From an uncultured Erysipelotrichaceae bacterium (GTDB lineage: Bacteria > Bacillota_I > Bacilli_A > RFN20 > CAG-826): 55,959 bases of DNA. The stretch's first letter is position 1. Every line of letters starts with the position of its first letter. The stretch is taken from NCBI GenBank assembly GCA_902803375.1, contig CADCPN010000060.1:1-55959 (forward strand), read 5' to 3'. A program made the translations under genes and the position numbers. Shown piece after piece: positions 19,069 to 43,450 of the stretch. A model generated the notes under the pieces. It ran no database searches and had not been told where the DNA came from. It saw only the letters and a list, made by a program, of their open reading frames with translations.

Positions 19069-22000
19069 TTACCGCTGATAAGAGAGGAAGGACATGAAGT
19101 TTTGGATCGTCATATTCTCGCCATATAGGCTGCCCTGGAGGTATTTGATGCCGACGTTGGTCGCGTATTTGGCTTCCTCTTCGCTAGAGATGCCATTGGC
19201 GGCGCCAAGAAGCTTAAGCTCCTGCAGCTCGCCAACGAGCTTGATGTAGGAGAGGGAGTCGGATTCGTTGGAAGTGGCGTCTTGAATCAAGCCAGAGGTG
19301 GTCTTGACGTAGGTGAGGCCAAGGTTCTTGAATCTGCTGAGGGGGCAGATGCCCATGGAGTAGCTTCTGACGCACCAATAAATGCCTAGGTCCTTCAAGG
19401 AAGGAAGCAGCTTCTCCAGCATCTCGGCATTCTCATTGGCGAACTCCGCGCTCATCGTTAGGGCAAGAGTTCCCGAAGGAATCTTGCTTTCTTCGATGAT
19501 GGAGCGAAGCTTGCTTGGGAAGTCATGGTCTAGATAGGTGAAGCCAGAGATATCAAGGGCAAGCGAATGGATGTTGAAATCGCGCAGCAGGCTATCCCTA
19601 TTTTCCTTATAGAAGGCAGCGACCTCGCGCAGGCCGATGTAGTCGATGGCCGCAGATAATCCCTGAGCCTCGGCAACGCGGTGCCACTCCGCCGTATGGA
19701 TCTTCTGGTGGCCCTCCCCTTCATAGGCGATGCGGAACTCAATGAAGGCAGGCTTCTTGGTCGCGCTATCGATGATCGGGGTGAGATGGAGGGTGCTTCT
19801 TCCGGTTTTGACGCTATCGGCGAGAAGATCGGCGATATAGTCGTCGCGGAAGGCGCATCTGGCCCTGGTGCGGCCGACTTCGACGAGCCTGCCCTGCCCC
19901 AAACTCGCGCTGCGCTCAAGCTCGGTCTTGATGAGGGAGATCGCCTCGAAGGAAGTGGGTGCTTCGTTTGGATAGGCGATGGCGCTATAGGAGTAGCGGG
20001 GCGAAAAGGCTTCGTTGCCGGCGTAAAGCGGGCCTTGAATCTGCTCAGCGACTTCTTCGACCGCGGTATATAGCTCGGTCTTGGAGGTGAAGCCAGTGAG
20101 CTTCAGAACAAGGGTCAAGCCATCGTAACGGTAGATGAGGTCATCATATCCCGCGCCTTGGATCGCTTTGACGATGCTCGTCATCATCGCGTTGGCGGAG
20201 AGAGAGGAGGAACGCTCAACGATCTCGTCTTTGTTAATTAGGCGGATAGAGAGCAAGTAGCCTTTGCCGTTAGCCTTGATCTCATGGGAGAGGTCGATGG
20301 ACAAAGCCTTAGAGTTGCGGATAAGGAGATTTTTATCGATAAGGGAGCTAGAGAGCTCGCTAGAAGCGGTCTCCTGCTCAAGGAGGATGGTGGTGAAGCC
20401 TTCGATGTCCGCGTTCTCGCCAAGCGAGGAAATCGTGGATTCCTTCATGGAGAGAGAAGGGATGACGCGCTTGCTGACGCCATGGGTAAGCGGGCACCAT
20501 TGGCAAGGGCTATCTTCCCCATAGATGGCTTTGTGGCAAAGTTGCCCAGGCTGGATGCCCGGCATCTTCTGATGCAACGAATCGGAGATGCGGGTGAGAC
20601 GGTAGCTTACCCTGTCGATCATGTAGAAGTACTTGCTGGAGTGGGTGGCGAAGGCGTTGAGGACGTTATAATAGGCGCCGCTACGCTCATTGAGGGCTAG
20701 ATGAAGCGTGGAGCTCGCTAGCAGCGGCGCGAATTCATGTAGCTTTTCTCGATGCAGAAGCGGGATCTCAATGCTCTCTTTGCCTAGAAGATAGACGAAG
20801 CCGTATTTGGTGTTCTGCCAGGCGATCGGGGAGATATAGACCGTCTTCATGCCGATGCTAGATAGCGTTCCTAGCATGTTGCGGGGCAAGCTTAGCGGGG
20901 AAGAGCAGACATAAGGGAAGTCCTTGACGCTTGCTTCATAGAAGGGGTCGAGGATGTAGGCGGGAATGCGCTTGCCAAGGCTAGAGAAGCCTTTGACATC
21001 GCCGCTGCGGGATTGCTCCAAGATAAGCTCATAGTCATCGGAGACGTTATGGTAGAGATAGGCGCCGCCGACATCGAAGCCGATCATGCCTTCATATAGG
21101 CGGAAGATTTCGGCGAGGGCTTCGTGGAGTTCCGGCGCGGTTTTGCTCGCCATGATTTTGCCGGTGCAGGCTTCGATGGCGTTAAGCGCGATGATGCGCC
21201 TGGTGTTCTCATTCTGGAGAGAAGGGCTATAGACCTTGCCGTCGCCATAGGAGATATTGACGCCACGGCCTTTATGGAGGGCGCTTTTGGCGGTGGAAAT
21301 CAAGGCGCTAGAAGGGACAAGGGGATAGACGGCTCCGCCGACGCTGCAGCCATAGACGTCCATGCGCGGGGAGTTCTTCTTGGTGATGGCCACCGCGAAG
21401 CTAGAGACGAAAGCCTCGATCTTCGACTGGAGGGAGATCTTATCTTCGATGCGGTAGACATAGCAGAGGTAGGTGCCATCATAATCCTTGCCGATCATCA
21501 CGCCGGGGAAGGAGTTGCGGATAGAGGAATATAGGCGGGAGTTAACCTCGGGTGGGATGGCCTCGGTCTTGCCTTCGGCGCGGATGGCCAAAATGCAGCT
21601 GCGGTAGCTGGGGTTATTCAAAACCTCAGCCGAGAGCATGCTGGCGAATTCATCGACGGTGAGAAGCTCTTTCGTCGGCGAGGACTTCTTGCTCTCTTCC
21701 TCCTCGTTTTTGGCGAGGACTTCATTGAAGTGGCTGACCGCCTCGTTGACGCGGTTCTGCATCAAGCGGATGGCGGCGCTTTTCCAGGCATTGCGCCCAA
21801 GGCGAATTGAGCCAGCGCGGAAGGAGGTGAGCTGATCGGAGATATTCTGCGATACGCTATCGAGTTCCTTCATCGTGCGGCGGTAAAAAAGGAATAGGAG
21901 GGCGGTGATGATGGTGGTGGAGGCGATGAGGAATGCCTGAACCGGATAGATCCAAGTCCAGTCATGGTTGACCCAAAGCAAGACGATGGAGATGGCAAGA

Positions 22001-22134
22001 AGCACGCCCTGCAGAAAGAGGCAAAGGAAGGCAAAGGCGAAGATGATCCTCGACTTCTTTGCTTTGCTTTCTTGCTCGTCTTTCTGGACGCGAGATGGTG
22101 AGGGGCGGAAGAAGAAATTTGCTTTACGTTTCAT
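19069..22134 (-). CDS. membrane protein with degenerate GGDEF, GAF, PAS-like, degenerate GGDEF and degenerate EAL domains
   Basis: 2 N-terminal TM; 'GKDYDGTY..SVGGAVYP' and 'YRYDGLTL..AIAYP' GGDEF-fold remnants; CHKAIYGEDSPCQWC; EAL fold with EFR in place of EAL, no DDFG, and C-terminal 'YLQGSLYG'. Start ATG 22134 after GGAGG. Confidence 0.75.
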   Translation of the reverse strand: MKRKANFFFRPSPSRVQKDEQESKAKKSRIIFAFAFLCLFLQGVLLAISIVLLWVNHDWTWIYPVQAFLIASTTIITALLFLFYRRTMKELDSVSQNISDQLTSFRAGSIRLGRNAWKSAAIRLMQNRVNEAVSHFNEVLAKNEEEESKKSSPTKELLTVDEFASMLSAEVLNNPSYRSCILAIRAEGKTEAIPPEVNSRLYSSIRNSFPGVMIGKDYDGTYLCYVYRIEDKISLQSKIEAFVSSFAVAITKKNSPRMDVYGCSVGGAVYPLVPSSALISTAKSALHKGRGVNISYGDGKVYSPSLQNENTRRIIALNAIEACTGKIMASKTAPELHEALAEIFRLYEGMIGFDVGGAYLYHNVSDDYELILEQSRSGDVKGFSSLGKRIPAYILDPFYEASVKDFPYVCSSPLSLPRNMLGTLSSIGMKTVYISPIAWQNTKYGFVYLLGKESIEIPLLHREKLHEFAPLLASSTLHLALNERSGAYYNVLNAFATHSSKYFYMIDRVSYRLTRISDSLHQKMPGIQPGQLCHKAIYGEDSPCQWCPLTHGVSKRVIPSLSMKESTISSLGENADIEGFTTILLEQETASSELSSSLIDKNLLIRNSKALSIDLSHEIKANGKGYLLSIRLINKDEIVERSSSLSANAMMTSIVKAIQGAGYDDLIYRYDGLTLVLKLTGFTSKTELYTAVEEVAEQIQGPLYAGNEAFSPRYSYSAIAYPNEAPTSFEAISLIKTELERSASLGQGRLVEVGRTRARCAFRDDYIADLLADSVKTGRSTLHLTPIIDSATKKPAFIEFRIAYEGEGHQKIHTAEWHRVAEAQGLSAAIDYIGLREVAAFYKENRDSLLRDFNIHSLALDISGFTYLDHDFPSKLRSIIEESKIPSGTLALTMSAEFANENAEMLEKLLPSLKDLGIYWCVRSYSMGICPLSRFKNLGLTYVKTTSGLIQDATSNESDSLSYIKLVGELQELKLLGAANGISSEEEAKYATNVGIKYLQGSLYGENMTIQNFMSFLSYQR

Positions 22135-22150
22135 ATTCTCTCTTCCCTCC

Positions 22151-22873
22151 TTACATCTTTTCGGAGTTAAGCAGGATGTTAAGGAGGATTCTGCCGATAT
22201 CCGGCATGGCCTCCAAGCCTTTTCTCCGATAGTTGAGCCTTTGCTCGTCGTTGCCTGGCTCATAGGCGATGACCTTTAAGGTCAATAAAGCGGTTGAATT
22301 GACGTGGCAGGCAAGCGCGATGCCGCCGCTGACGGTGTCATAGGCGCTGACCTTGGTGGAACCGGCGAAGTGACGGAGAAGGATGCCATCGAATTCTTCC
22401 TTATCCATATATTCTTTCTCGCCAGAGAGCATGAAGCCTCGCTCGATGTAGTGGCCGCCGCCGACTTCATAGGAAGCGGCTTCGGCTTTGGCGTTGACCT
22501 CGGTCGAGGCGTAGAAGAAGGGCGGCAGTCCCGGGATCTGGCCATATTGGTTTTCTCCGTCCCCAGAGAAATCGACGCCGCTAAGGTAATAGCGGTCAGC
22601 GATGAATAGGTCGCCCTGACGGAGGCTATCCTTCATGGAGGCGCAGTAGCCGACATTGATGACGATATAGGGGTCAAGAAGATGGATGAGCCTATCGGTG
22701 ACCATAGCGCTATATAGGTTATTGGGGCCTACCGCGCAGATACCGATCTGCTCGCTGCCGATGGTTCCCTTATAAAGGATGCGGCCCTCGCTTAGCCTTT
22801 CTTGGCTGGAGATCTCGCAGCGGGAGACGAAGTAGAGGATGGAATCCTCGCTTTCACCTACGAATAGGATCAT
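22151..22873 (-). CDS. MTA/SAH nucleosidase-fold protein (PNP_UDP_1), catalytic motifs altered
   Basis: VINVGYC..LRQGD, YGQIPGLPPFF. The expected (D/E)ME and RxISD motifs appear as DTV and KVIAY. Confidence 0.75.
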   Translation of the reverse strand: MILFVGESEDSILYFVSRCEISSQERLSEGRILYKGTIGSEQIGICAVGPNNLYSAMVTDRLIHLLDPYIVINVGYCASMKDSLRQGDLFIADRYYLSGVDFSGDGENQYGQIPGLPPFFYASTEVNAKAEAASYEVGGGHYIERGFMLSGEKEYMDKEEFDGILLRHFAGSTKVSAYDTVSGGIALACHVNSTALLTLKVIAYEPGNDEQRLNYRRKGLEAMPDIGRILLNILLNSEKM

Positions 22874-24443
22874 AAGCTATACGCGCCTCCTTTCGCTTTG
22901 GGCTCTCCTTTTTCTCGAAGGGGTTATCTTCTAGATACGCCTCGAAATGGGCGCGATCGCTTGGCCTGGAGTAGTAGTATCCCTGGATGCTATCTAGGTC
23001 TAGGGAGCGAAGGATGTCGGACTGGTGCTCGGTCTCAACGCCTTCGGCGATGACCTTCATGCCTAAAGCGTGGGCAAGGGAGATGATGGAGAGGACCATC
23101 GCCTTGGATTTGGCATCGACTTCAACGTCATCGACGAAGCTTTTATCGATCTTAAGGACATCGAAGGGGATGTTCTTCAAAGAGGACAAAGAGGAATAGC
23201 CGACGCCGAAGTCATCGATGGAGGTCGCAAAGCCCAAGCCTTTGACCTTGCGGATGATGGAGGAGATGAAGACGGTGTTATTAGCCGCCAAGGATTCGGT
23301 AAGCTCCATATCGATAGAGGTCGGATCGACGTTATGCTTCTTCATCGTATCGGAAAGGAAGGATATGAGGGAGGGGTCGTAGACGGAGCGTCTAGACAAG
23401 TTGACGGAGATGACGACTTTGCGGCGCTTCTCCTTGTTCCATTTCTCGATGTCCGCGCAGACGTGCTCGAATACGTAGTGGTCGATTTCGACGATCTTGC
23501 CGGAGTTCTCGCAATAGGGGATGAAGACGGCGGGCGGGAGAAGGCCGCGCTTAGGATGCTTCCAGCGGATAAGGGCTTCTGCGCCATAGAAGGCGTTCTT
23601 CTTGAGGCTATATTTTGCCTGGTAATAGATGACGAGCTCTTCGTTAGCGAGGGCTCTGGTGATCTCGGAGTCAAGCTCCTTCATGCGTGCGTTTTCCGCA
23701 AGCATAGATTGATCGTAGACAAGCAGGTCGCAAGAGATGCGGCTAGAGGCGTTATGCCAAAGGGCAAAGATGGTCTTTTCTAGCGCATCCGAGGGCTTTT
23801 CCTTGGCCTCGATCGGGTGAGCGCTAAGAAGGAAGGCGACATAGGGGATGTCGTCTCGCCTTTCGATGCTCTCGGTGAGGGTGAAGGCGAACTTTCTGAA
23901 GGAGTCTAGCTGATCATCGACGTTGCTCGCGTTGAAGTAGAGGATGTAGTTGTTGTTATGGTCGATGAAGAGGTGGAAGGTCGGGTCAAGGCCAAAAGCG
24001 GCCTTGACGCGCTCTAGCAGCAGTTCGTTAACCGAGTAGGTGAAGGCGGTGCCAAGGGAATTAAGGGTACCGCCGGCGTTGGTCTTAACGGCTAGGCCAA
24101 GCAGAAGCGGCACCGTGCCATCTTCGGCTTTCTTCCTTAGCCTATTGAGCTTGCCTAGCAAAGCGGCGTCATCTTCGACATACTGCTCATCGCTCCCGAA
24201 AAGAGAGCGCAGCCACGCCTTGGTTCTGACAAGGTTTGCTCTGGCATTGACCGTGACGGAGATGCCTAGCGACAGCAAAACGGAGCCAAGGTAAGCGAGG
24301 AAGGCAAGGTAGACGGAAGCGGCAGTCGGCAATAGCTTCGCGCCATTAAGAAGATTAACGACGACGAAGATGATGACCCCAAGAAGCGCGGAGGCGCCTA
24401 AAAGAAGGATTGCGAACAATGCTCTTAGTTTCTTTTCGCTCAT
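22854..24443 (-). CDS. membrane-anchored EAL-domain c-di-GMP phosphodiesterase with degenerate GGDEF
   Basis: YYQAK, GAEALIRW, SVNLS, ELTES, DDFGVGYSSL, KIDKSF, AEGVET and QGYYYSRP all intact; 2 N-terminal TM. Confidence 0.92.
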   Translation of the reverse strand: MSEKKLRALFAILLLGASALLGVIIFVVVNLLNGAKLLPTAASVYLAFLAYLGSVLLSLGISVTVNARANLVRTKAWLRSLFGSDEQYVEDDAALLGKLNRLRKKAEDGTVPLLLGLAVKTNAGGTLNSLGTAFTYSVNELLLERVKAAFGLDPTFHLFIDHNNNYILYFNASNVDDQLDSFRKFAFTLTESIERRDDIPYVAFLLSAHPIEAKEKPSDALEKTIFALWHNASSRISCDLLVYDQSMLAENARMKELDSEITRALANEELVIYYQAKYSLKKNAFYGAEALIRWKHPKRGLLPPAVFIPYCENSGKIVEIDHYVFEHVCADIEKWNKEKRRKVVISVNLSRRSVYDPSLISFLSDTMKKHNVDPTSIDMELTESLAANNTVFISSIIRKVKGLGFATSIDDFGVGYSSLSSLKNIPFDVLKIDKSFVDDVEVDAKSKAMVLSIISLAHALGMKVIAEGVETEHQSDILRSLDLDSIQGYYYSRPSDRAHFEAYLEDNPFEKKESPKRKEARIAYDPIRR

Positions 24444-25700: not shown

Positions 25701-28700
25701 TTACTTCATCTCCGCAGGTGTTTTGGGGGTGGCTAAAACGGCAACATCGTTCTTCTTCATGACTTCTTCGACTAGCGAGAGAGCGCGCTTACAAGAAAGA
25801 TCGCTGCGAACGCGGAATAGCATTGGGGTATCTTCTAGCTTCTTGCTGGAGTTTCTCTCTACCGGCAAGACGCTATCTTGGTAATCATCGGGGTTAAGGG
25901 CAAGGTTAAGCTTGATGTGCTTGCCGGAAAGCTGGATGAACAGTAGCCTCACCCTATGGGCGCTATAGAGGTCGCCCTTGATGGAAAGCCTCTCCGAGCA
26001 ATCATACTCGCAAGCCTTCTTACGGATGGTCTCTAACTTCTGCTTGAGGTCGGGATCGATGTTCTGCAGCTTTTCGAAGAAGGTAGCTTTCTTAATCTCC
26101 GGAACAAAGGACTTCTTTGCAGAAGCCTCTTCGCCAACGACAGGGGAGTCTTCCTCTTGCATAGGGGCTTCTCCTATAGGCTTAACTTCCCCAACGGGTT
26201 CTTCCGCCTTTTCATGCTCAATAGCAGGGGCTTCTCCAATAGCGGGGTTCTCCGCTTTTTCACCCATCTTGATCTCCTCTAGCTTCGGCTCTTTCCTAGA
26301 AAGGGGAGTGGAAGAGGCCTTCATGGTCTCTTCGATCAGGGTGAGGGCGCGCTTTAAGGACAAGTCAGATCTGACTCTAAGTAGCAGCGGGGTATCTGCA
26401 AGCTTCCTAGAGGTATTCTCCTCAACCGGCATCGTGGAGTCGGCGTAGTCTTTCGGGTTAAGGGCAAGGTTAACCTTGATGTGGTGGCCAGAAATGGTGA
26501 GGAAGACTAGTTTCTTCCTATGAGCGGAGAAGAGGTCTCCCTTGATGGAGACGCGTTCGGAAACATCATAGGAAGCGGCTTTATAACGAAGGGTATCGTA
26601 TTTGGCCTTAAGATCATCGTCGAGGTTGGCGTATTTCTCCTGGAAGGGAGTCTTCTTGATTTCGGGGACGGAGGAAGTGGAGGCAATAGGCGTGACTTCT
26701 GTAGCGGCGGGCTCTTCATCCGGTTGTTCTTCTTTGACCGGCTCTTCTACCTTCTCGGGTGTAGAGACAATGGCTTGCTCGGGTTTAGGCTCTTTAGCGG
26801 CAGGGGCAGCTTCTTTTTCTTCTACTTGAATCGGGGCGGCTGCTTTTGGGGTATCAAGAAGAGGCATGCCTTCGTTTTTGAACACTTCATCGATGAGGGA
26901 TAAGGCGCGGCGATAGGAAAGGTCGCTCTTAACGCGGAATAGCAGCGGGGTATCCGAAAGCTTCTTGGAGGTATTCTCCTCAACGGGGAGAGTGCTATCT
27001 TGATAGGCTTTGGGATCAAGGGCAAGGCTGACCTTGATATGACGTCCAGAGAGGGTGAGGAAGACAAGCCGCTTTCTATGCGCGGAGAAGAGGTCTCCTT
27101 TGATGGAGACGCGCTCAGACACATCATAGGAAAGGGCTCTTTCACGGAGTCCATCGAACTTCGCTTTGAGTTCATCCTCTTCGGATAGATTGAGGTATTT
27201 CTCCTGGAACGGCGTCTTCTTGATCTCGGGGACGAAAGAAGGGGCTATGGCCTCGACGGGGGTTGGAACCTCAACGGGGTTCGTTTCGACGACAGATGCC
27301 TCAACGGGCTTGCTGATATAGACGGTCTTCTCGATGACCTTGGTGTCTTTGATGAGAATGGTCCTGACTTTCTCTGGAAGCGGGGAGACGGTGCCAGGAT
27401 AGGCGATTTGAGGAGCGAATTCTGGAGCAGTGCGAACAATCTTCGCCTCTTCTTCAAGCTTAGCTTCTTCTTTGGCGGAGAGCTTAACTGGGGAGAAAGA
27501 GGTTGGATATAGGCCTTGCTTAGCAAGGGTGGGCTTAGATTTAACGATGACGGGTTCTTCGCCGCTATAGACCTGCTTACCTAGACCGAAAGAGGCCATA
27601 GCCTCATCGACAAGGGCTTTGGCACGCCTAAGAGCGAGGTCGCTTCTGACACGGAAATCTAACGGCAATCTCTTGCCAAGGGCCCCTTTGGTTGAAGAGA
27701 CCGGCATTGCCGAATCTTCATATGAGGCGGGATCAAGAGCGAGGTTAAGCTTGATGTGCTTGCCAGAGATGCTAAGGAAGACGATGGCTTTCCTTCTAAA
27801 GGAGGTAAGCTCGCCTTTGCTGTTTCTGACGGAAGAGGCACCACTGAAAGAAGCGATGTATTCGTGAAGCTGCCGGTATTTGGAGGTAACTTCGTCATTG
27901 GAGAGGAATAGCTTCTCCAAGAAGGTATGGGAATTGATATCGGCGTAGAAAGGCTTTGCAGGCGGTTCTTTAAGCGGGGAGAGTGTGCCTGGGAAATTGC
28001 CTTGGATCGCATAGGTTGGCGTAGCGCGCTTAATGCGTTCGATCTCAGCAAGCCTAGCCTCATTCTCACGTCTCACCTCGTCTTTATCTCTTATCGGCGA
28101 GAGGAAAAGCGGGGCGGCCCCAGAGTAAAAGGAAACCGCGCCATAGCCGTCGCTGATGTGGGTATCCATCTCTTCGACGCCATAGGGGAGTCCAAGCTTA
28201 TCGAGTTCCGCCTTGCGGATGACCTTGCGCCTAGCGGCTTCCAGGCGACGCTCTTCTTCAGAACGGCGTTTGGCAAGCTCTTCTTCTTTGCGCCTAGCCT
28301 CTTCTTCGGCTTTAAGCTTAGCTTCAAGCTCAGCAAGGCGCATGGCCTCTTCTTGACGTCTAGCCTCTTCTTCGGCCTTGCGAAGGCGCTGCGCGGCTTC
28401 TTCGGCGATATCTTTGGCTTTCTGCTGCTCGATCGCGTCATCGACAAGGGCTTTCTTGATGTGGTCCTCATTCCATTTCTGACGTAGATGCTGCCTCTCT
28501 TTATGGACCTCATCGGGGGTCGGGGTAAGCGGAGTATCCGGCATCGGACGTCTCTCGGGGAATTGATCGTAGAGGAATTTGCCATCGTAGAAAGTTTCGT
28601 CTTCGAGGGTGAAAAGCACCTTCGGGGTGATCTTCTTGGTGGTCTTCTTGAGGTCTTTGAGGGCCCGATTCTTCAAAACGCTGCTGCGAAGGGTGAGCAT

Positions 28701-32469: not shown

Positions 32470-33573
32470 TCAGTTAACGGTGAAATTGATGCCAAACGCG
32501 AGTTCAACGCCTTGGGGCGGCGTGCCATAGCAGTCCGGATCATAGCCTTCAAGCCAGCAGACAACGGTATAGCGCATGATTCCAGAAGTCGGCAATGGAA
32601 TGAACTTCTTGGAGAAGAGCTCTCTATCGGAGGTGATGAATGGCTCGCAGTATCCCCGTAGAGCAGGGACGCTTTCTAGGCTTGGATCGCGGTACTTGTA
32701 TTTGGTGGGATTCAGCTGCGGATTGTAGAACTGACTAATGCATTCTCTACGATCGTCATAAGAAGGATCCGACTCATAGCCAGCCTTGGTGTTCCAACTG
32801 CTGGTGTTGGCGGCGCCATAGACGGTGAAGTCGTGCGTGGTAGAAGCGGGACTAGTGACGTCGGTGACTTCGTTTTCGAAAACCATGACGCGAAGATAGT
32901 CGCTTGGTTGAGTGGCTTTATTGGTTGGCTCGTGATAGTAAGTCAAAGCCATATCCATGTTGTAGGAGATTTCCTTAAAAGCTTTATTCTTTAAATAGAA
33001 GGTATAAACGATCGCACGATCGACGGCTACATCTTCGCCGTTAGACGTCATCTTGCCATGCAAAGAGTTTTCGCCAGTAAGATGATCACCGGTTGGAGTG
33101 AAGTGGCCTTCATTGTTTTTGACCGGGTCACCGTTGACGTCGCGTTCTACGTCCCCATCAAAGAATTCGGAGCAGTAGTTATAGACGTCATCAGCCGCCG
33201 TAGGAACGGCGGAATTGAGGCCGTTTGCTTTGAGGATAGACTTCTCCTCAGAGGCAACGGGCAATAGCGAAAGCGCGATCTGGCCATCGCTTTGCCTGGG
33301 ATCAACGCGGATAGTGAAATTACCGGAGACGCGACCTAGGAAAGCAATGATGCTTAAAGCGGTCACACCGACGGTGCCAATGCCTGCGATGATCAAAGCT
33401 ATCTTCTTATTACGACGCCTGCGCGCGTATTTGGCGCCTTTTGCGTAACGCTGATTATACTTCGGGTCCATATAACTTGGACCATTCTGCTTGGGAGCGT
33501 TAGTTGCGGATGGGGTCGATGAAGAAGAAGGCTCGTTGCCAGGGTTAGGGTTTTGGATCTTATCCTTCGCCAA
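32470..33573 (-). CDS. membrane-anchored fibre-subunit-like protein
   Basis: TTG start after AGGAGG; RRRRNKK plus a single TM; LRVMVF and RYTVVCWLEGYDPDC motifs shared with 31300 and 35873. Confidence 0.7.
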   Translation of the reverse strand: MAKDKIQNPNPGNEPSSSSTPSATNAPKQNGPSYMDPKYNQRYAKGAKYARRRRNKKIALIIAGIGTVGVTALSIIAFLGRVSGNFTIRVDPRQSDGQIALSLLPVASEEKSILKANGLNSAVPTAADDVYNYCSEFFDGDVERDVNGDPVKNNEGHFTPTGDHLTGENSLHGKMTSNGEDVAVDRAIVYTFYLKNKAFKEISYNMDMALTYYHEPTNKATQPSDYLRVMVFENEVTDVTSPASTTHDFTVYGAANTSSWNTKAGYESDPSYDDRRECISQFYNPQLNPTKYKYRDPSLESVPALRGYCEPFITSDRELFSKKFIPLPTSGIMRYTVVCWLEGYDPDCYGTPPQGVELAFGINFTVN

Positions 33574-33805
33574 ACGAAAACCTCCTATTGACCATTACTT
33601 TACACCTTTTGGAAGCGATGACTAAAACATATAGAACGCTTTTCCAATTGCCGTGTAAAGAAGTCTGGAATGTTTTGATCCCGGCCCAAACTTGACGTTT
33701 ACCATTAGAATCACTTGGGGCCGGGCTCTCAACAAAATAGAAGCCCTAAGAAACAAAATGATGCCAGCTCAGTTGCCTACAAAGCAGGTACGCTTTGTTT
33801 CTCGT

Positions 33806-33880
33806 GGTAACTGGCTGCCATCTCAATTAGGGGAAGGCCCTTTAGTTTTGCGCCGCCGTGTTTCCACGACTTTGCTTTTC
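33806..33880 (-). ncRNA. c-di-GMP-I (GEMM) riboswitch
   Basis: Minus strand AAAA-GCAAA-GTCGTG-GAAA-CACGGC-GGCGCAAAACTAAAGGGCC...ATGGCAGCCAGTTACC matches the GEMM consensus; upstream of the operon starting at 33573. Confidence 0.88.
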
Positions 33881-34030
33881 TCGTCTACTAATTTAATTAG
33901 GAGACTTCCTGGTGTCAACTACGATTTAATGCTTTTTGTCTATTTTTGTACCAAAGGCCCAAACGTTAACGTTCGTTTAGATTTTCGTTATGTAACGTTG
34001 GAAACCGCAAATTGTCGTATGCAAAAGAAA

Positions 34031-34067: not shown

Positions 34068-34475
34068 TTATTTTTGCTCTGCGCCAGATTTTTCTTCGGC
34101 GGCAAGCTCGGCCATGATCTCAGCACGAAGTTCATCTTTGGCAGCCTGCTTGGCCTGCTCTTCAAGGATGGCTCTTTCTTCTTCAGAGATGTTGGATTCT
34201 TTCTTAATTGCGTACATGACCAGATAGACGATATCAACCACCAGGACGATAAGAAGCGGAAGAACGATGATCAGGAAGAAGCCGGTCGGGTTATTCTGGA
34301 ACCAGCCGATCATCGGGCCATTCTGCTCATTGAGCTGTCTAGCCGTGATTGTACCGAACTGATCCGGGGAATTGAAGGTGACCATAACAACGATGCTGAC
34401 GGTCAAACAGAATATAATCAAAGCCAACTCAACGACTCCGACGATAATCAGATTTCTTTTTGTTTTCTTATCCAT
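34068..34475 (-). CDS. 2-TM membrane protein with acidic coiled-coil tail
   Basis: Two hydrophobic helices; tail 'DELRAEIMAEL' resembles the SipW tail 'EEMRAEILKE'. Confidence 0.75.
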   Translation of the reverse strand: MDKKTKRNLIIVGVVELALIIFCLTVSIVVMVTFNSPDQFGTITARQLNEQNGPMIGWFQNNPTGFFLIIVLPLLIVLVVDIVYLVMYAIKKESNISEEERAILEEQAKQAAKDELRAEIMAELAAEEKSGAEQK

Positions 34476-35872: not shown

Positions 35873-36778
35873 ATGAAAAAATCTAAGAAACTTATGATCG
35901 CTGCCATGGCAGCCCTCACTGCTGGCGTTGCCGGCGCCGCTGGAACCTCCACCTTCGCTTGGTTCTCTGTTAACAATAAGGTCACCGTTTCTGGCATGAA
36001 GGTCCAGACCAAAGTCAGCAGCAACCTTTTGATTGCCAATTCTGCCTTAGACAAAGCTGCCCAGGAAGAAGAAACCGCTTTCTCCACTGGTTTGAGCGCT
36101 ACTATGGAAACTGCTACTCTTGAACCGGTTTCCACTATTGATGGCAAAAAGTTCTTCTATACCGTTGGCGCCACCGCTACCGGCGACGCGGCCGAAGATA
36201 AGTACACTGCTTATAATGCTATTGAGGTTCCGACTACCGAAGAATTAAAAGCTTTCAACACAGCTTATGGCAACGAAGCCGGCAAGGCTGTTGGCTATAT
36301 TGACTATGTCTTCCAGCTCAAGGCCGTTAATGCCGATACCGCTAAACCTGAGTCCATCAAACTCACTAAGCTTGACTTGCTTTACACCAAGAAGGGTTCT
36401 GAAACTGGCCTTGCAAAGTCTTTCCGCGTTGCTTTCTTTGTCTCTGCTGCGAATACTATTGAAGCTGGTAGCGCGACTTTAAATGCCATCTATACTCCTT
36501 CCGGAGCCAAGAACTTCACTGAAGGACAGGCTGTTTCTTCCACCACCGCGACTGGCAAAGTTGCTTATCAGAGTGCTGCCAAGGATCTTGCTTCCGTTGC
36601 CGCTGGGAAGACCGAATATTATAAAGTCGTCGCTCGCCTCTGGATCGAAGGTGAAGATACTGAGTGCACCAACACCACCTTCGCTGAGATGACGGGCAAT
36701 TGGGCGCTCAACCTTGAGATGGTTCTCGGTGGAACCGCAGTTGGCGTCAGCAACCTCAATGTTGCCGCAGCCGCCTAA
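35873..36778 (+). CDS. probable major fibre subunit with SipW-type signal peptide
   Basis: MKKSKK, h-region, 'GTSTFAWF'; Ala/Thr-rich; FRVAFF and KVVARLWIEGEDTECTN; strongly biased codons (GCT/ACT/GTT); own terminator. Confidence 0.8.
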   Translation: MKKSKKLMIAAMAALTAGVAGAAGTSTFAWFSVNNKVTVSGMKVQTKVSSNLLIANSALDKAAQEEETAFSTGLSATMETATLEPVSTIDGKKFFYTVGATATGDAAEDKYTAYNAIEVPTTEELKAFNTAYGNEAGKAVGYIDYVFQLKAVNADTAKPESIKLTKLDLLYTKKGSETGLAKSFRVAFFVSAANTIEAGSATLNAIYTPSGAKNFTEGQAVSSTTATGKVAYQSAAKDLASVAAGKTEYYKVVARLWIEGEDTECTNTTFAEMTGNWALNLEMVLGGTAVGVSNLNVAAAA

Positions 36779-36797
36779 TAGCGAACACTAACTCTTC

Positions 36798-36830
36798 AGG
36801 CCCGCCGAAAGACGGGCCTTTCCTTTTGCT
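36798..36830 (+). terminator. intrinsic terminator
   Basis: AGGCCCG-CCGAAAGA-CGGGCCT followed by a T-rich run. Confidence 0.75.
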
Positions 36831-38299: not shown

Positions 38300-38611
38300 A
38301 AGCATTGCTTTGGTTACAGTTTCCAAAAACTAACATTCATTTGGAATAGGCTAAATATCGATACCGTTTTCGAAAACGAAAGATAGCAATGGAGATTATA
38401 GAATTGCTTCTGCGTTCTTTTTCCTTCTGTGTGCTTGATATTTTAGCCAACGTAAAATCAACAAAATCCAAAAAAGTTTCTATTTCCTAATTGCTCGTTT
38501 TAGACAATAAAAGCAAACCTATAATATTCCGTCAATTTGCTTTCTGAAAATACACGCAAAGAAGTTTTCTTATTTAACTTTGCAAAACAAATCGTTATTC
38601 TTTAGGAGATT

Positions 38612-38680
38612 AAAGGCAAACTTAACGTAAGTTAAGGACGCAAAGCTAGTAGGGTCCTAATAAGGGATAGCCAGTTGCTC
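38612..38680 (+). ncRNA. c-di-GMP-I (GEMM) riboswitch
   Basis: AAAG-GCAAA-CTTAAC-GTAA-GTTAAG-GACGCAAAGCT..GGGTCCTAA..GATAGCCAGTTGC; ends about 20 nt before ATG 38700. Confidence 0.88.
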
Positions 38681-38699
38681 AAATTGAGAAACGTAACCA

Positions 38700-39560
38700 A
38701 TGGATAGACTGGCGGAAATCAATAGGAAAAGAACGGCGTTACGAATTCAGATCGCGACGTGTTTTTCTTTTACCGGCCTTTTGGTGGGCGCGACCGGCTT
38801 TTCCACGTATGCTTGGTTCTCGGTCAATCAGCAAACCCATGTTTCCGGCATGAGCATTGTCGTTGATAACAAAGCCACCATTCTCGGAACTGCCTTCTAC
38901 ACGATGGACTCCACCTCTAGTGGAAACTCGGTTTTCAAAAGGGTCTCGCCTTCTAGTGACCCCTATGACATCGGTCTATTCGACCCGGTTCTAGGCAGTG
39001 AGAAACACACGATGCTAATCCGCGTGGATGTGAAACCGTCTTTGACTGCTGCCTACCCCTATGCCTTCACCGATACGACCTTAGATAAAATCCTCCCGAA
39101 AAAGGATGGCTTGAGATCTTGGTTCCGCATCACCGCGGATTACACCGCGGATTCTTGGAACCCTTTGACCTCGATTGTGGCAATGAACTGCTACACCGGC
39201 TCTGCTGTGAGCGTTTCTGCCGCCGATGGCGTTGAAACCGCCACGCTGCCTTCTCCCACCGCCGACAAGACCTTTGTGGCATTGAATGCGGGAAAAGACC
39301 CAAGCACCTTCTATTCAACCATTTCTTTGACTTCGGGATCTATCGCTCCTAGCACGACGAGCGGTTATTACTGCATCTGGATTGTGCTCGACTATTCTCA
39401 AGATGCCGTCACCAGTCTATATTCCGCCAACATCGGCAATGAGGCATTAAGCCTCTCCACTGACTCTCACATCGATACCGGCATCGTGTTCAAACGTGAT
39501 TTCAAGATAAACATCAGCGAGACCGCCGTTTCCTCGGTCATAGCGGAGGAGAATGCATAA
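38700..39560 (+). CDS. secreted protein with SipW-type signal peptide (minor subunit?)
   Basis: 'ATGFSTYAWFSVN' nearly identical to 'TSTFAWFSVN' of 35873; S/T-rich beta protein. Confidence 0.75.
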   Translation: MDRLAEINRKRTALRIQIATCFSFTGLLVGATGFSTYAWFSVNQQTHVSGMSIVVDNKATILGTAFYTMDSTSSGNSVFKRVSPSSDPYDIGLFDPVLGSEKHTMLIRVDVKPSLTAAYPYAFTDTTLDKILPKKDGLRSWFRITADYTADSWNPLTSIVAMNCYTGSAVSVSAADGVETATLPSPTADKTFVALNAGKDPSTFYSTISLTSGSIAPSTTSGYYCIWIVLDYSQDAVTSLYSANIGNEALSLSTDSHIDTGIVFKRDFKINISETAVSSVIAEENA

Positions 39561-39562
39561 AC

Positions 39563-42500
39563 ATGAAGAAGTTAGGCTTTATTGGGAAATATTGCATTGG
39601 CCTAGGAGTAGTGGCCGCCGCCACCATCACGGCCTTAGCGTCTTTTTCTGTCGCCTGGTTCTCCAACGGCGATATTCAGGATGAGATGATCGGCCGTACC
39701 GCTAGAGGCTATTTTGGCGGCGGCGATGGCAGCGCGACCATCGATGAAGAAGCCGGCACCGCTGGCCCTTATCAGATTCATGACCCGATTCACCTCTATA
39801 ACCTGGCTTGGCTTCAATACATCGGCTACTTCAAAAGCGCCGATGGCAATAACACCCCTGTGCAGAAATACTTTGTCTTGACCCAAGACATCGATATGAC
39901 CGGCTGGGCATTGCCTCCGATTGGAACCGAGGAATACCCATTCTATGGCAATTTCAATGGACAAGGGCATAAGGTCACCGGTTTAACGGTTTCTAACTCT
40001 TGGAGCGATATCCAATCCCGTCACCCGGATTCCGTTAACGAAAGCACTTTTACCGCTAACATCGTCGGCTTTTTCGGCGTTGTCGGACCTTATAAAAACG
40101 CGGCAACCCCTGCCTCTTATAGCTCTGCAGCGAATGCAATCCAAAACACTGGCTTAGAAGGCATTACGGTTAAGTCTTCTGCGTCGAAGACTCTGGTCGG
40201 CTTAGCCGCGGGCTATGTTAACGGCCCGCTAGAAGGGGTGGCGGTGAACAATTCCTATATCGATTTAAGGGATGCTGGAACCTATTTGGATGCCAATCTA
40301 ACAGAAAACATTTCCGACTATTCTCTTATTGGCCATGCCGCAGATTCGAAATATCTCTCAAAGATGCAGTCTTCCATCACCAAGACCGATACTCCGATAG
40401 TTGAAAATCCGTTTGTTTCCCAAGGCGGTGACGAGTGGGGTGGATCCATCGATATGAAGACGATGTACACCAACCTTCTTACGAAGATGAAGAATTCGAC
40501 TGGCTTCTCGGAAACGATAACGACTTACGAGGAGGAAAGCCGGACCAAAAACGCCGATGGCTCTTACACGCCGAGCAGCGGATATGAAGCTATTCCGTCT
40601 GCTAAAGTCACCGATAATTATCAAGATCTTGGGGTAACCCACAATAATGGAAACGACTATTTTTATGCGTATTCTGATACGGGTAAGAAGAAAGATGGCA
40701 CGACTGATGTTCAAACGGCAAATTACACTTTCGTGAGTTCAGAAGATAATAGTAATAAAGGGATGGATGGCTATGTTGGCTTGGGAGGGAAATATAGCCT
40801 ATATGATTATTCTTACACAAAGGAGTTCATAACCCGATCCAACGAGTCTGGCTTTTATTATTCGGATGTTTCGACCGGGTATTATTTATCTGCAAACGAA
40901 TCTGGCCTCACCTATGCAAAAACAAAGTCTAATGCTACACCTTGGTTTTTTGACGAAGAAGGACACCTGTATACAAATTTTGATAGGAGTATCCGTTTTT
41001 TAAACTTAAATAGTTCCACTTTGTCTCTCGCTAACGCTGGATCCACCGTTTGGGGATGGGATTCGAATACCTCGACTTGGACCTCTGGCGACTATCATCT
41101 TATTTTTGACGGCAACCAATGGCTCGCTTCCGCCGAAACGGAAATCAGCGTCCCTAGTTACTACACCATAAAACAAGGTGCTCGTTATTTAACTAATAAT
41201 GGAACTAATCTTTCCACGACGACAGCAGCTGCTTCGGCCGGCCATTTGTATTTTGACGACGGCGCTTATGGATATGCGTATTTTTTGTATAACAACAACA
41301 AATATTATTTCGACGACAGCGGTTATACTACAAAAATGGTTTTATCGTCCAATGCGACGCTGTCAAATTGTTTTTTGAGACAACAATCAGCACCCAATTA
41401 CTTGTATTGCGCTGGATATGGGGACTACATGAGTATTGAGGCTAGCTCAATTAGTTTTACGAGAAGCCCCTCTACGACGATTGATACTGTTTACACCGAA
41501 CAGGCTGTGAAATGTCAGACTGAAACTATCAATTCTGAAATAATCATTAAGGATGCCGAAAATAAGGAAGACCGCCATGTTTACACCGGGGAGACCTATT
41601 TTCCTTTGACTTGGAAAGAGGGGGGGACCGTGACTCCGAGTGAGAGAAATACCGGTTACGTTATTGGTGGTTCCAACTATACTAATTCTTCCGTCGGAAG
41701 CATCGGAGACGTCCGAGTTGCCGGAGACGGCGCCTATGAAACGAATACCGCGCTGAAGAATTCTTTTATCTCTGGGTCATCTTACTCATCCGCAGATTTT
41801 GCCCCATATACATTTAATTCGTCTGGAACTGCTGTGAAAATCGGCGATCCGATAAACAAAATGCAGGCCTCTTCAGGCTATTCGGATTACGATTCCGTTC
41901 TGGGCTTAAAGAAATATTATCAATCCATAATGGGAAAAACTACGGGCTCGAGACTTTCACTCGATTCGATGGTGTCGGGCGGAACGGCATATGGCCTTCA
42001 CTTTATGAACGCGGAAATTTCGATGAACAATCTTATTACTGTTCCTTATGCCGTGATAAACAATGAAGAGCATTACAATTATCAGCTTCCCCGCGATTCC
42101 ATCGACTTCAATTTAAAAACGGACGGTTATATTAATTTCTTTGCACATACGGGATTTGTTAACCCCACGTGGAATAACACCAATAATAGTTTTTTCTCTT
42201 TGCACTGGATTGACCGCAGCGGCTCAATCATCAATGAGATCAAACAGATTGCCAAAATTTACAAGAATAAGGATTATGAGACGGACAGCTCACAGCCCCA
42301 GTACGTTTATACGTTCAGGAATTCTTTGGGTGCGGAAGTCGACACGAGATGGAGCACCGGCGTTATGAACGAGAACCAAAGCGGTTATATCGGTGGGACG
42401 AAAGGCGATATGGTCTTTGACACATACTGGCTAACTGACCCTCAATACAATCAATTTGAGGTTTACGCGGCCTATTATTTCGAAATTCCGGTAAACAAAG

Positions 42501-43450
42501 GCGAGTTTGCGCTAGGATCCGCCTCTGGGAAAACGAAAAAAGATAATGGCTGGCCTGCCGAATATAACAAAAACGGTGCTTACCTAATGTACCTGGACAT
42601 CGGCGCTTCCAAAAAGAACGATACGGGTATCACTGTCACGGAGCATTCCGTTACGACTACCTATGATTATAGTTATCCGAAAGGTGTTGATTTTAAGGTC
42701 CTCCCGACCGAGAAGGGCGATTCGTTCTTTGAAGGAGTAACGGGAGGCCAGAGCTCTGCCATCATTCTTGATTCCAATGACAGCATGAACGTGGGCTTCA
42801 AATATACTGATGATTCGGATAATCCGACACTCTCCGTCGGCAAAGACAACGGAGGCGGGGGTTCTTTTGAGGCCGCCTATAAGACCACGGGAACTTCCGT
42901 GAGGAATACGGCGGGAGAAGATATACCCCTTGATTCGGGATCACCAGGAACGGTTGATGAGATGAATCGCGTGACGGTTTACGATTTAACAAAGAGCGAA
43001 AACAATTACAAGACCACAACAAAACATACCATCGATGGCGTGGAACAAGCCGAGACCGTTGAGACGCAGACAAAGTCGTGGACCGAAGAACAAATTGGCG
43101 CAATAGCTGCCTTTGAAAAAGAAGGCGAGAATATCTTCACCGTTGCCTATACGGCTTCTACGGGAAGCGAGGGCTCTGCAAAGGTGATCCTTGAATCTAC
43201 CTACGATGCTTTAACGTGCACCTATACCCTTAATTTCGTGACAGAGGGAACGGAAACGCAGCAGGTTGACCTAAAGTTCACAACGCTGAACCTAACGCAA
43301 AGTTATGTTGACGATTATGACCAGACTCATAGCTTCACCTATCACGTTGTTGTTCAAAATAACGGAGTGGCCACGGGAGCTTCCCTTGGCGACATTTCAA
43401 CTTCTTCGTTGAACAATACCCTCTCCGTGATCTCCGCACTAAAGGCTTAA
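39563..43450 (+). CDS. large secreted adhesin-like protein with SipW-type signal peptide and GLUG-like N-terminal domain
   Basis: 'SFSVAWF'; YFGGGDGS..PYQI..LYNLA, LTQDIDM, FYGNFNGQGHKVTGL, VGFFG; Y/N/S/T-rich; no LPXTG or C-terminal TM. Confidence 0.75.
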   Translation: MKKLGFIGKYCIGLGVVAAATITALASFSVAWFSNGDIQDEMIGRTARGYFGGGDGSATIDEEAGTAGPYQIHDPIHLYNLAWLQYIGYFKSADGNNTPVQKYFVLTQDIDMTGWALPPIGTEEYPFYGNFNGQGHKVTGLTVSNSWSDIQSRHPDSVNESTFTANIVGFFGVVGPYKNAATPASYSSAANAIQNTGLEGITVKSSASKTLVGLAAGYVNGPLEGVAVNNSYIDLRDAGTYLDANLTENISDYSLIGHAADSKYLSKMQSSITKTDTPIVENPFVSQGGDEWGGSIDMKTMYTNLLTKMKNSTGFSETITTYEEESRTKNADGSYTPSSGYEAIPSAKVTDNYQDLGVTHNNGNDYFYAYSDTGKKKDGTTDVQTANYTFVSSEDNSNKGMDGYVGLGGKYSLYDYSYTKEFITRSNESGFYYSDVSTGYYLSANESGLTYAKTKSNATPWFFDEEGHLYTNFDRSIRFLNLNSSTLSLANAGSTVWGWDSNTSTWTSGDYHLIFDGNQWLASAETEISVPSYYTIKQGARYLTNNGTNLSTTTAAASAGHLYFDDGAYGYAYFLYNNNKYYFDDSGYTTKMVLSSNATLSNCFLRQQSAPNYLYCAGYGDYMSIEASSISFTRSPSTTIDTVYTEQAVKCQTETINSEIIIKDAENKEDRHVYTGETYFPLTWKEGGTVTPSERNTGYVIGGSNYTNSSVGSIGDVRVAGDGAYETNTALKNSFISGSSYSSADFAPYTFNSSGTAVKIGDPINKMQASSGYSDYDSVLGLKKYYQSIMGKTTGSRLSLDSMVSGGTAYGLHFMNAEISMNNLITVPYAVINNEEHYNYQLPRDSIDFNLKTDGYINFFAHTGFVNPTWNNTNNSFFSLHWIDRSGSIINEIKQIAKIYKNKDYETDSSQPQYVYTFRNSLGAEVDTRWSTGVMNENQSGYIGGTKGDMVFDTYWLTDPQYNQFEVYAAYYFEIPVNKGEFALGSASGKTKKDNGWPAEYNKNGAYLMYLDIGASKKNDTGITVTEHSVTTTYDYSYPKGVDFKVLPTEKGDSFFEGVTGGQSSAIILDSNDSMNVGFKYTDDSDNPTLSVGKDNGGGGSFEAAYKTTGTSVRNTAGEDIPLDSGSPGTVDEMNRVTVYDLTKSENNYKTTTKHTIDGVEQAETVETQTKSWTEEQIGAIAAFEKEGENIFTVAYTASTGSEGSAKVILESTYDALTCTYTLNFVTEGTETQQVDLKFTTLNLTQSYVDDYDQTHSFTYHVVVQNNGVATGASLGDISTSSLNNTLSVISALKA

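Follow-up and report, generated by a model that had tools for sequence, protein, structure and literature searches.

A c-di-GMP riboswitch-associated CoCoPALM-class locus, with a membrane-anchored McrB-like GTPase and a SipW-type signal peptidase, in an uncultured Erysipelotrichaceae bacterium

The window analysed here is a stretch of 55,959 nucleotides from an uncultured Erysipelotrichaceae bacterium (GenBank assembly GCA_902803375.1, contig CADCPN010000060.1, forward strand), and its positions 19,069 to 43,450 hold a locus in which a membrane-anchored McrB-like GTPase, its McrC homologue and a SipW-type signal peptidase lie together with riboswitches for cyclic diguanosine monophosphate (c-di-GMP), an EAL phosphodiesterase and a set of secreted proteins. 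By the NxD motif of its GTPase, the DUF2357 partner with a coiled coil and the adjacent SipW, the locus is read as a member of the CoCoPALM class. The reading preferred here, with a probability of about 0.6, is that it encodes an apparatus, induced by c-di-GMP, for the processing and display of surface proteins, at the core of which a membrane-anchored GTPase complex of McrBC descent is tethered to SipW. It is a genuine and widespread system, of a kind so far barely described.

The name CoCoPALM was given by Bell, Makarova, Wolf and Koonin (eLife 2024; PMC11090510), whose main text outlines a large clade of McrB-like GTPases that carry NxD, usually followed by D or E, instead of NxxD, and that are fused to an FtsB-like transmembrane (TM) segment and a coiled coil, the McrC homologue also having coiled coils and signal-peptidase-family genes being associated. 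The class occupies three sentences there, with its analysis deferred to a later paper, and is placed among the CoCoNuT-like systems; the terms 'c-di-GMP', 'EAL' and 'membrane' do not occur in that main text, and the supplements may list some of the neighbours (PMC11090510). The name was found in the literature just in this paper and its preprints, and a search on SipW, McrB, TasA, c-di-GMP riboswitch and PDC-M26 returned no paper on this cassette. A preliminary description of the DNA had held that the combination was nowhere described, which has to be corrected, as the association had already been named, without analysis. New with respect to the main text of PMC11090510 are the riboswitch control, a predicted ON switch, the three homologous families of subunit-like proteins (called here sub1, sub2 and TasL), the paired SipW paralogues, the fusion of the McrC homologue to SipW, and the EAL genes. 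Further new points are the trio of EAL enzyme, pseudo-nucleosidase and degenerate GGDEF-EAL protein, confined to the window's lineage, and a host genome in which penicillin-binding proteins, FtsW/RodA and sortase are not matched.

A conserved cassette of GTPase, McrC homologue and signal peptidase

The cassette was matched at least 596 times in a pattern scan across 185,579 bacterial and archaeal species, each represented by one genome, and the best 80 of these matches were examined. To judge by record titles, these come mostly from gut, rumen and mollicute-like Bacillota, the carriers being rumen and gut Bacilli, Acholeplasma, Ruminococcus, Christensenellaceae and Oscillospiraceae among others, along with a few apparently mislabelled bins. 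Open reading frames (ORFs) were clustered for the window and 96 loci, that is, 97 sources, 94 of them with a GTPase ORF; the loci were chosen by the GTPase, whose own presence is thus by construction, and many are cut by contig ends, so that the counts are floors. The DUF2357 partner adjoins the GTPase in 83 of the 94 sources, and a SipW-like gene flanks the pair in 82, lying directly upstream in 53, directly downstream in 49 and on both sides in 20. Within six genes upstream of the GTPase, sub1 is found in 63/94 sources and TasL or sub2 in 57/94, while an EAL gene is present in 55/94. A typical cassette runs EAL, sub1, TasL (one to three genes), SipW, GTPase, McrC homologue, SipW, and then a giant protein and other secreted proteins whose signal ends in A-W-F after a hydrophobic stretch (x-A-W-F proteins); its carriers include walled Clostridia.

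In three Ruminococcus loci (L051, L057 and L099, the last from Ruminococcus flavefaciens MC2020), the full SipW domain forms the C-terminal part of the McrC homologue (E 1e-59 to 1e-61), and the fusion protein also matches Pfam Peptidase_S26 at 9.6e-6. Its topology is consistent with a cytoplasmic McrC part, a TM helix, a peptidase outside, a second TM helix and a charged tail inside. The association of the pair with SipW is not due to chance, because the same order recurs across Bacilli and Clostridia and the parts are fused in three loci. That a McrB/DUF2357 pair was simply inserted into an unrelated SipW/TasA-like operon has nothing in its favour beyond the differing ancestry of the parts, and against this shared order and these fusions it can hardly be right. 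The preliminary description had named as a refutation that the pair be found in defence islands independent of SipW and EAL genes, a check that came out in its favour, and the link that had been drawn from the window alone, of the pair with SipW, x-A-W-F proteins, EAL and riboswitch, is upheld by phylum-wide synteny, the fusion and the recurrent riboswitches; that all of these belong together functionally is strongly supported.

A hidden Markov model (HMM) of SipW finds the domain in 140 proteins from 89 of the 97 sources. An apparent scarcity of SipW at the loci, seen in 25/80 by tblastn with the window's divergent SipW, was rejected as a sensitivity artefact, clustering placing it in 87/97. 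The window's SipW, the single full SipW-like gene of the assembly in a genome scan, lies 4 nt downstream of the McrC homologue, and its NCBIfam match falls below the equivalog cut-off (Table 1). It has Ser90, His166 and Asp207, assigned from what we take to be the catalytic residues of Bacillus subtilis SipW, and of 121 family members 118 retain the Ser, 119 the His and 93 the Asp. The window's SipW is extended by an insertion, a C-terminal TM helix and a long cytoplasmic tail rich in Lys and Glu. The small gene at 34068-34475 matches the SipW HMM over positions ~140-228 only (E 1.5e-11), which comprise the C-terminal TM helix and tail and leave out the peptidase. Such remnants are found at 13 loci, always upstream of sub1, and the small gene seems to take the place that an upstream SipW paralogue has in other lineages. 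Another type of cassette is seen at three loci (L023, L024 and L025), with a 320-340-aa SipW-like gene, a ~610-aa GTPase whose partner belongs to family c26 and not to DUF2357, an ABC-transporter-like pair, and small secreted proteins that end G-F-[AS]-S-W-V-I, not A-W-F.

The first 230 residues of the GTPase consist of a TM helix (~56-82), a heptad-like coiled coil and a low-complexity linker, after which comes the AAA+ domain with Walker A GTGKT, Walker B LDEMN and the NxD(D) motif N373-N374-D375-D376, in which N373, D375 and D376 are invariant in 13/13 aligned homologues. Family scans assign it to AAA_5/McrB, and its family profile matches the McrB structure 6hz4 at 2.2e-6 in a profile search of the PDB; the Pfam DivIC/FtsB match at residues 70-108 is weak (E 0.034, in 1 of 13 members). 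The N-terminal DNA-binding specificity domain of McrB is not present, a TM helix standing in its place. A second membrane-anchored McrB-like system lies on another contig of the same genome (C15; L026 8102-12704), where a DUF2357 gene lies between two TM-bearing GTPase genes; proteins of 1439, 926 and 587 aa are encoded alongside, and no SipW is nearby.

In the McrC homologue of the window DUF2357 is matched at 3.2e-4, below the cut-off; it rises above the cut-off in 3 of 10 McrC homologues scanned (1.8e-8 to 1.3e-11) and stays just under it in a fourth, and a sequence-profile search of the PDB with the N-domain gave no match. A charged coiled coil rich in Lys, Glu and Arg, with a TolA-like match, spans residues ~372-472. 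The preliminary description spoke of a DUF2357-repeat protein; the 1308 residues in fact hold one DUF2357 N-domain and four copies of a different, YjbR/DUF1801-like domain of ~135 aa (562-698, 800-935, 988-1121 and 1176-1308 by a repeat HMM). The AlphaFold2 model of this repeat (predicted local distance difference test, pLDDT, 91.7) is an alpha/beta sandwich, whose closest structures with the exhaustive aligner VIA are YjbR (2fki, Z 8.3), a YdhG/DUF1801-like protein (9t2w, Z 8.2) and DUF419, followed by weaker likenesses to the MotA DNA-binding C-domain and frataxins near Z 6 and to type III secretion chaperones near Z 4-5. Foldseek returned 2oc6 at E 5e-3 and no PDB match at E <= 1e-3, Pfam names nothing in the repeat, and the best sequence-profile match in the PDB has E 0.11. 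The repeat was found in only 12 of the D2357 proteins examined, none of them of the window's close relatives, and is regarded as an accessory part. Pfam, PADLOC and PDB profile searches detect no nuclease family in the McrC homologue, PD-(D/E)xK included, although residues 180-330 may hold a degenerate fold, and PADLOC names nothing in it, in SipW, in sub1 or in sub2.

Of 24 other genomes of the genus, 22 carry the GTPase gene, as do 9 of 16 genomes from seven other families of the order. Among 200 genomes sampled from the class it occurs by family, in 14/15, 4/4, 4/5 and 3/3 genomes of some families versus 0/15, 0/13, 0/11 and 0/10 of others; because of this family-wise presence and absence, the distribution looks inherited rather than scattered like that of defence islands. 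It thereby bears on a reading in which the McrBC-derived pair is an anti-phage or anti-plasmid module, a CoCoNuT-like derivative of Type IV restriction (PDC-M26), which would guard, or be triggered via, a surface structure that serves as phage receptor. Such a module would suit the McrB/McrC ancestry of the pair, the placement of the clade among CoCoNuT-like systems in the main text of Bell et al. (PMC11090510), repeats of YjbR/MotA-like fold that might bind nucleic acid, and the occurrence of a second membrane McrB-like pair without SipW on contig C15; PADLOC, too, gives as top family of the GTPase the candidate defence gene PDC-M26A (5.5e-40). However, the cassette has no nuclease or other effector by Pfam or PADLOC, the DNA-binding N-domain has given way to a membrane helix, the partner is fused to an extracytoplasmic peptidase in some relatives, expression is predicted to be tied to c-di-GMP, the gene is near-universal in the genus and family-wise in the class, unlike patchy defence islands, and the repeats that might contact nucleic acid are present in just 12 of the D2357 proteins examined. 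A role in conflict or defence is therefore held to be quite improbable.

Riboswitches, c-di-GMP proteins and layout of the locus

Both c-di-GMP riboswitches and the tightly packed minus-strand operon of the preliminary description are found where it had placed them (Table 1). Each aptamer scores above the curated threshold of its covariance model and lies directly upstream of genes on its own strand, binding of c-di-GMP being predicted. In the ViennaRNA fold of the first leader, the terminator-like hairpin takes the 3' strand of the aptamer helix for its 5' arm, and because of this double use aptamer 1 is a predicted ON switch, in which the ligand would prevent termination. Aptamer 2 ends 17 nt before the start codon of the gene for the 286-aa protein, and the gene for the 301-aa protein has no riboswitch of its own.

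Rfam places c-di-GMP-I aptamers above gathering in 7 of 8 cassette loci tested, and none in R. flavefaciens. An aptamer model of our own, built from 11 Rfam-found aptamers and run over 1.47 Mb with a cut-off of E <= 0.001, gave 52 matches in 39 of the 97 sources, 8 of these sources by construction. All 52 share the strand of the gene that they precede, 26 lying directly before sub1, 7 before a short EAL gene that precedes sub1, and 10 before other x-A-W-F proteins. Tandem c-di-GMP-I aptamers in one leader are seen in Acholeplasma granularum (L080; 6180-6262 and 6343-6426), as well as in L046 and L068, and the A. granularum locus has an additional aptamer after its second SipW. The window's genome has three RF01051 matches, two in this locus and the third on another contig (C27:8297-8376), where it precedes proteins of 296 and 680 aa with the signal ends GTFAWF and HGFAWF; these are paralogues of the window's 286-aa and 1295-aa pair, and a GGDEF protein is encoded just upstream. 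All three c-di-GMP-I riboswitches of the genome precede x-A-W-F proteins or this operon.

The last three genes of the operon encode an EAL enzyme, a nucleosidase-like protein and a degenerate GGDEF-EAL protein. The catalytic motifs of EAL phosphodiesterases are EAL, DDFG(T/V)GYSS, KxD and EGVE, and all are intact in the enzyme encoded at 22854-24443 (EAL, DDFGVGYSS, KIDKSF and EGVE). The nucleosidase-like protein aligns to Escherichia coli methylthioadenosine/S-adenosylhomocysteine (MTA/SAH) nucleosidase (3o4v/1jys) at 1.6e-10, with Tyr in the column of Asp197 and Val in that of Glu174, which we take to be the catalytic residues in E. coli numbering; as the Asp197 column lacks Asp in 17/17 family members, the protein probably keeps the fold and has lost the enzyme activity, being a pseudo-enzyme or ligand sensor. 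The 1064-aa two-TM protein has EFR for EAL, LDISGF for DDFG and ANGISS for EGVE, matches NCBIfam LapD at 1.2e-8 over 640-1051, and is a candidate c-di-GMP receptor. This trio occurs only in the window's order, and the degenerate receptor in 17 of the 97 sources.

Contigs from RNA libraries that are ~97% identical to the window cover parts of the locus. Carry-over of DNA is possible, large parts of the operon are not covered by any contig, and contig gaps are uninformative. One contig (32437-33868) runs from inside aptamer 1 through the hairpin and the whole of sub1, another (35722-36782) covers the 301-aa gene and stops just before its terminator, and others begin inside aptamer 2 and continue downstream; a second study adds short contigs on the genes for sub2, the McrC homologue, SipW and the degenerate EAL protein. 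In two runs from one sample (X1 and X2), the contigs both stop at 32436-32437, 33 nt past the sub1 stop and at the sub2 start, and this shared end could reflect either the end of a transcript or a difference between strains.

Eight minus-strand ORFs follow aptamer 1, with junctions that range from a spacer of 49 nt at most to an overlap of 113 nt. The latter (22151-22263) is between the nucleosidase-like gene and the 1064-aa ORF as read from its first ATG, whose true start is probably Met44 (22134): a Lys/Arg-rich stretch and the TM helices come next, and the genes would then be separated by a gap of 16 nt. A terminator scan finds clean terminators after the small gene at 34068-34475 and after the 301-aa gene.

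Table 1. Features of the locus, with positions counted from the first letter of the window.
Feature	Position	Strand	Basis
c-di-GMP-I riboswitch aptamer 1	33803..33886	-	Rfam RF01051, 58 bits vs gathering 35, E 8e-9
c-di-GMP riboswitch aptamer 2	38606..38683	+	RF03167 (c-di-GMP-I-GGC), 59.2 bits vs gathering 59; RF01051, 56.7 bits, at the same site
sigma-70-like promoter, TTGACA-17-TAAATT	33890..33918	-	10/12 consensus positions, top score of the region; consensus match only
terminator-like hairpin of the expression platform	33760..33822	-	ViennaRNA dG -27.6 kcal/mol; AUUUUGUUUCUU directly after
sub1, membrane-anchored member of the subunit superfamily	32470..33573	-	N-terminal cytoplasmic tail, one TM helix, beta-rich ectodomain
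sub2, secreted paralogue, signal end TATYAFY	31300..32442	-	hhalign to the TasL family
membrane-anchored McrB-like GTPase, 533 aa	29677..31278	-	TM helix, coiled coil and AAA+ domain
McrC homologue, 1308 aa, DUF2357 N-domain	25701..29627	-	Pfam DUF2357; repeat HMM
SipW-type (S26B) signal peptidase, 418 aa	24440..25696	-	NCBIfam SipW 1.5e-11 (below cut-off)
membrane-anchored EAL phosphodiesterase	22854..24443	-	Pfam EAL 3.3e-69
MTA/SAH-nucleosidase-like protein	22151..22873	-	PNP_UDP_1 6.9e-11
two-TM protein, degenerate GGDEF-like regions and degenerate EAL, 1064-aa ORF	19069..22263	-	Pfam EAL 4.2e-28 over 814-1048
small membrane protein, remnant of SipW C-terminal TM helix and charged tail	34068..34475	-	SipW HMM; own terminator 34049-34031
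TasL, 301-aa secreted beta-sandwich protein, signal end TSTFAWFS	35873..36778	+	terminator at 36798-36819
286-aa secreted protein, signal end FSTYAWFS	38700..39560	+	sequence
1295-aa secreted protein, signal end SVAWFS, candidate tip or adhesin	39563..43450	+	sequence

Between the genes for the 301-aa and 286-aa proteins lies a MATE gene (36866-38299) that looks unrelated. The 1295-aa gene is followed at 43573-45984 (+) by genes for a transporter of the major facilitator superfamily and a 314-aa protein with a sub-threshold match to Zn-dependent phospholipase C (2.4e-4), and the same pair stands beside the cassette in locus L031. Elsewhere in the window, a tetrahydrofolate (THF) riboswitch aptamer is found at 4223-4331 (-), with 62.4 bits vs gathering 36.

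Secreted proteins and the question of a surface fibre

Of the secreted x-A-W-F proteins that had been proposed, the three on the plus strand hold up, having TFAWFS, TYAWFS and VAWFS after a hydrophobic stretch, whereas sub1 lacks the motif; a scan of the genome finds just 5 ORFs with A-W-F in such a position. Profile comparison with hhalign makes sub1, sub2 and TasL three branches of one superfamily, in which the TasL family is matched by sub1 with 98.5% (E 3.9e-15) and by sub2 with 99.4% (E 3.1e-21), and the motifs A.RV and W.EG.D.DC are common to all three. They occur in 65/97 (sub1), 44/97 (TasL) and 24/97 (sub2) sources, the last often as 2-5 tandem copies. In sequence-profile searches of the PDB TasL gave nothing and sub1 gave rows at chance level only.

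The AlphaFold2 model of the 301-aa TasL is a beta-sandwich (pLDDT 69.6; predicted template modelling score, pTM, 0.70) with no Foldseek match to the PDB at E <= 1e-3. The top rows of the aligner VIA include the Sulfolobus thread filament 7pnb (Z 5.7; root-mean-square deviation, rmsd, 4.9 over 142 residues), the TasA fibre 8aur (Z 5.4; rmsd 4.0 over 139 residues) and, with Z 4.7, the Pyrobaculum bundling pilus 7ueg; further rows are chaperone-usher pilins as well as unrelated sandwich domains at the same level. In the Atlas the nearest named cluster for TasL is Peptidase_M73, with a score of 0.87 that is a lead only, and nothing usable was returned for the 1295-aa protein (best 0.77). Compared with seven Pfam-positive Peptidase_M73 proteins of the class, the TasL profile gives an hhalign probability of 95.8% (E 7e-9) across the signal and first strand. 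Two of these seven genes lie a few kb from a CoCoPALM GTPase and have their own extra SipW. In locus L112 (G156:C1), a Peptidase_M73 gene with the classical signal GGVLAWLTD lies ~3.5 kb from the GTPase, accompanied by a third, short SipW and two x-A-W-F proteins.

Ten small x-A-W-F proteins encoded downstream in the cassettes are unnamed by Pfam, with one sub-threshold Peptidase_M73 match (0.018). A homologue of the 286-aa protein adjoins a riboswitch in L108, and partial homologues of the 1295-aa protein are found in the cassettes L108, L065, L043, L060 and L075. In A. granularum (L080 14666-16966), a 767-aa x-A-W-F protein ends in two CBM_5_12 modules (1.5e-17), which suggests that the large proteins of these cassettes are adhesive parts.

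These data have to be weighed against a reading that keeps the apparatus and does without the fibre, the x-A-W-F proteins being monomeric surface adhesins, enzymes or a surface layer, and the GTPase-SipW complex a gate on the release or retention of their precursors, in the manner of LapD and LapG. In that system, c-di-GMP exerts inside-out control over an adhesin protease, LapD being a degenerate GGDEF-EAL protein and LapG a cysteine protease. The likeness holds in outline, as c-di-GMP would again be linked to a degenerate GGDEF-EAL membrane protein, here within the operon, to a protease outside the cytoplasm and to a large candidate adhesin; the window's protease is, however, of the S26B type, and the degenerate receptor is limited to the window's order. 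A gate of this kind would also agree with the body domains, which are not recognisably TasA by sequence, with the adhesin-like or carbohydrate-binding parts (CBM_5_12 in L080) of the large proteins in relatives, and with the fusion of the peptidase to a cytoplasmic NTPase system, which suits trans-membrane regulation. It is nevertheless thought unlikely, since the best fold matches, though weak, are donor-strand fibre subunits, since tandem paralogous small subunits together with one giant protein are the usual make-up of a pilus (major, minor and tip), and since in some genomes these clusters also contain true Peptidase_M73 genes accompanied by a SipW of their own. The surface fibre of the preliminary description is thus retained in part: the signal type and the peptidase are TasA-like and the TasL fold is compatible with a fibre subunit, while polymerisation is putative, being hinted at by the SipW-type signal ends and the weak resemblance to TasA and archaeal threads (Z ~5.5).

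Proposed mechanism, known relatives and meaning

The current model proposes that high c-di-GMP would bind the aptamer at 33886-33803 and sequester the 5' arm of the terminator, so that transcription would enter the operon, and an RNA contig that reads through does exist. The pair of 286-aa and 1295-aa proteins and the paralogues on contig C27 would each be induced behind their own c-di-GMP riboswitch. By analogy with SipW and TasA, the peptidase (Ser90/His166/Asp207) would cleave the signal ends of sub2, of the 301-, 286- and 1295-aa proteins and of the two C27 paralogues. The processed beta-sandwich proteins may then assemble on membrane-anchored sub1, forming a fibre or an adhesive layer. 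At the cytoplasmic side of the membrane, a hexamer of the NxD McrB-like GTPase and its apparently nuclease-less McrC partner are coupled to the peptidase via coiled coils and charged tails, covalently in Ruminococcus, a coupling that fusion and synteny show. The pair would spend GTP on gating or driving both processing and assembly. The EAL enzyme of the operon may lower c-di-GMP as a negative feedback, and the degenerate GGDEF-EAL protein and the pseudo-nucleosidase may act as nucleotide sensors.

The host makes such an arrangement plausible. Its assembly (1.67 Mb, 88.5% complete) has 20 GGDEF matches and no match to a penicillin-binding-protein (PBP) transpeptidase, FtsW/RodA or sortase, controls being matched in the same assembly; the host is probably wall-less, with a large and unusually dense c-di-GMP network, and for such a cell a membrane-anchored display apparatus is plausible.

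The locus shares with CoCoPALM the NxD McrB-like GTPase, whose N-terminal TM helix and coiled coil are putatively FtsB-like, the coiled coil on the McrC homologue, and the signal peptidase. It differs from the common cassette in having one SipW plus a tail remnant, an expansion of sub2, YjbR-like repeats on the McrC homologue, and the trio of EAL enzyme, pseudo-nucleosidase and degenerate GGDEF-EAL protein within the operon. The tapA-sipW-tasA operon of Bacillus, which is under SinR and not under a riboswitch, has no NTPase, and the window differs from it further in subunit bodies that are not Peptidase_M73 by sequence and in a SipW that, in CoCoPALM cassettes, has a long charged tail or a McrC fusion. 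Both have a dedicated SipW-type peptidase beside its substrates, aromatic-rich signal ends of the T-x-A-x-F type, an accessory or anchor protein next to a major subunit, and a beta-sandwich which in the window is weakly like the TasA fibre (8aur). That fibre is built by donor-strand exchange (PMC9674648). The sipW-bsaA matrix pilin operon of Clostridium perfringens (PMC7395162, PMC11580942), a clostridial relative, likewise links SipW to a TasA-like polymerising matrix protein, and the abstracts of these papers mention no McrBC-like pair or c-di-GMP riboswitch. McrBC Type IV restriction (6hz4, 6ut6, 7vsr) has in common with the window its AAA+ GTPase core and a partner containing the McrC N-domain (DUF2357); in McrBC itself, this N-domain is inserted into the hexamer, where it stimulates hydrolysis (PMC11090510). 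In the window, however, a membrane anchor replaces the N-terminal DNA-binding domain, no PD-(D/E)xK nuclease is detected, the motif is NxD and not NxxD, and the context is one of secretion genes, not methyltransferases.

Several observations weigh against the proposed display apparatus. Pfam and NCBIfam name no family in sub1, sub2 or TasL. The fold matches of TasL all stay below Z 8, the level at which a match stands out, and come from a model of middling quality, and its likeness to Peptidase_M73 is limited to the first 46 columns (signal and first strand), with the body not covered. No RNA-library contig joins sub1 to sub2, which leaves co-transcription of the whole operon unsupported by the contigs. 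Cassettes of the Ruminococcus type lack a riboswitch, and from some of them a TasL gene is missing. The gene for the GTPase is absent from one complete genome of the genus (G009), so that the system is dispensable. The strongest family match of the GTPase is to PDC-M26A, its ancestry lies in restriction, and repeats modelled as YjbR/DUF1801- and MotA-like would also suit a nucleic-acid-directed system. Finally, we know of no TasA-type or chaperone-usher-type fibre that needs an NTPase.

A further-reaching version of the display apparatus takes CoCoPALM to be a surface-fibre pathway of monoderm and wall-less bacteria powered by nucleoside triphosphate (NTP), in which the GTPase hexamer and a McrC-like plunger would drive a signal peptidase platform, subunits being extracted, polymerised and perhaps retracted, with c-di-GMP as master switch. 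This is put forward tentatively, as somewhat unlikely on present evidence; if true, it would add a third way of building such structures to those of sortase pili and type IV pili.

As two of the three c-di-GMP riboswitches of the genome belong to the cassette, adhesion under c-di-GMP signalling probably has its main output here in the host, one of a poorly studied group of organisms. McrBC is the textbook restriction motor, and its descendant at this locus would clearly exemplify the recruitment of a defence motor for the biogenesis of the cell surface. With A. granularum ATCC 19168 and R. flavefaciens MC2020 as cultured carriers, both the anchoring of a fibre without a wall and the role of an AAA+ GTPase at a signal peptidase become testable.

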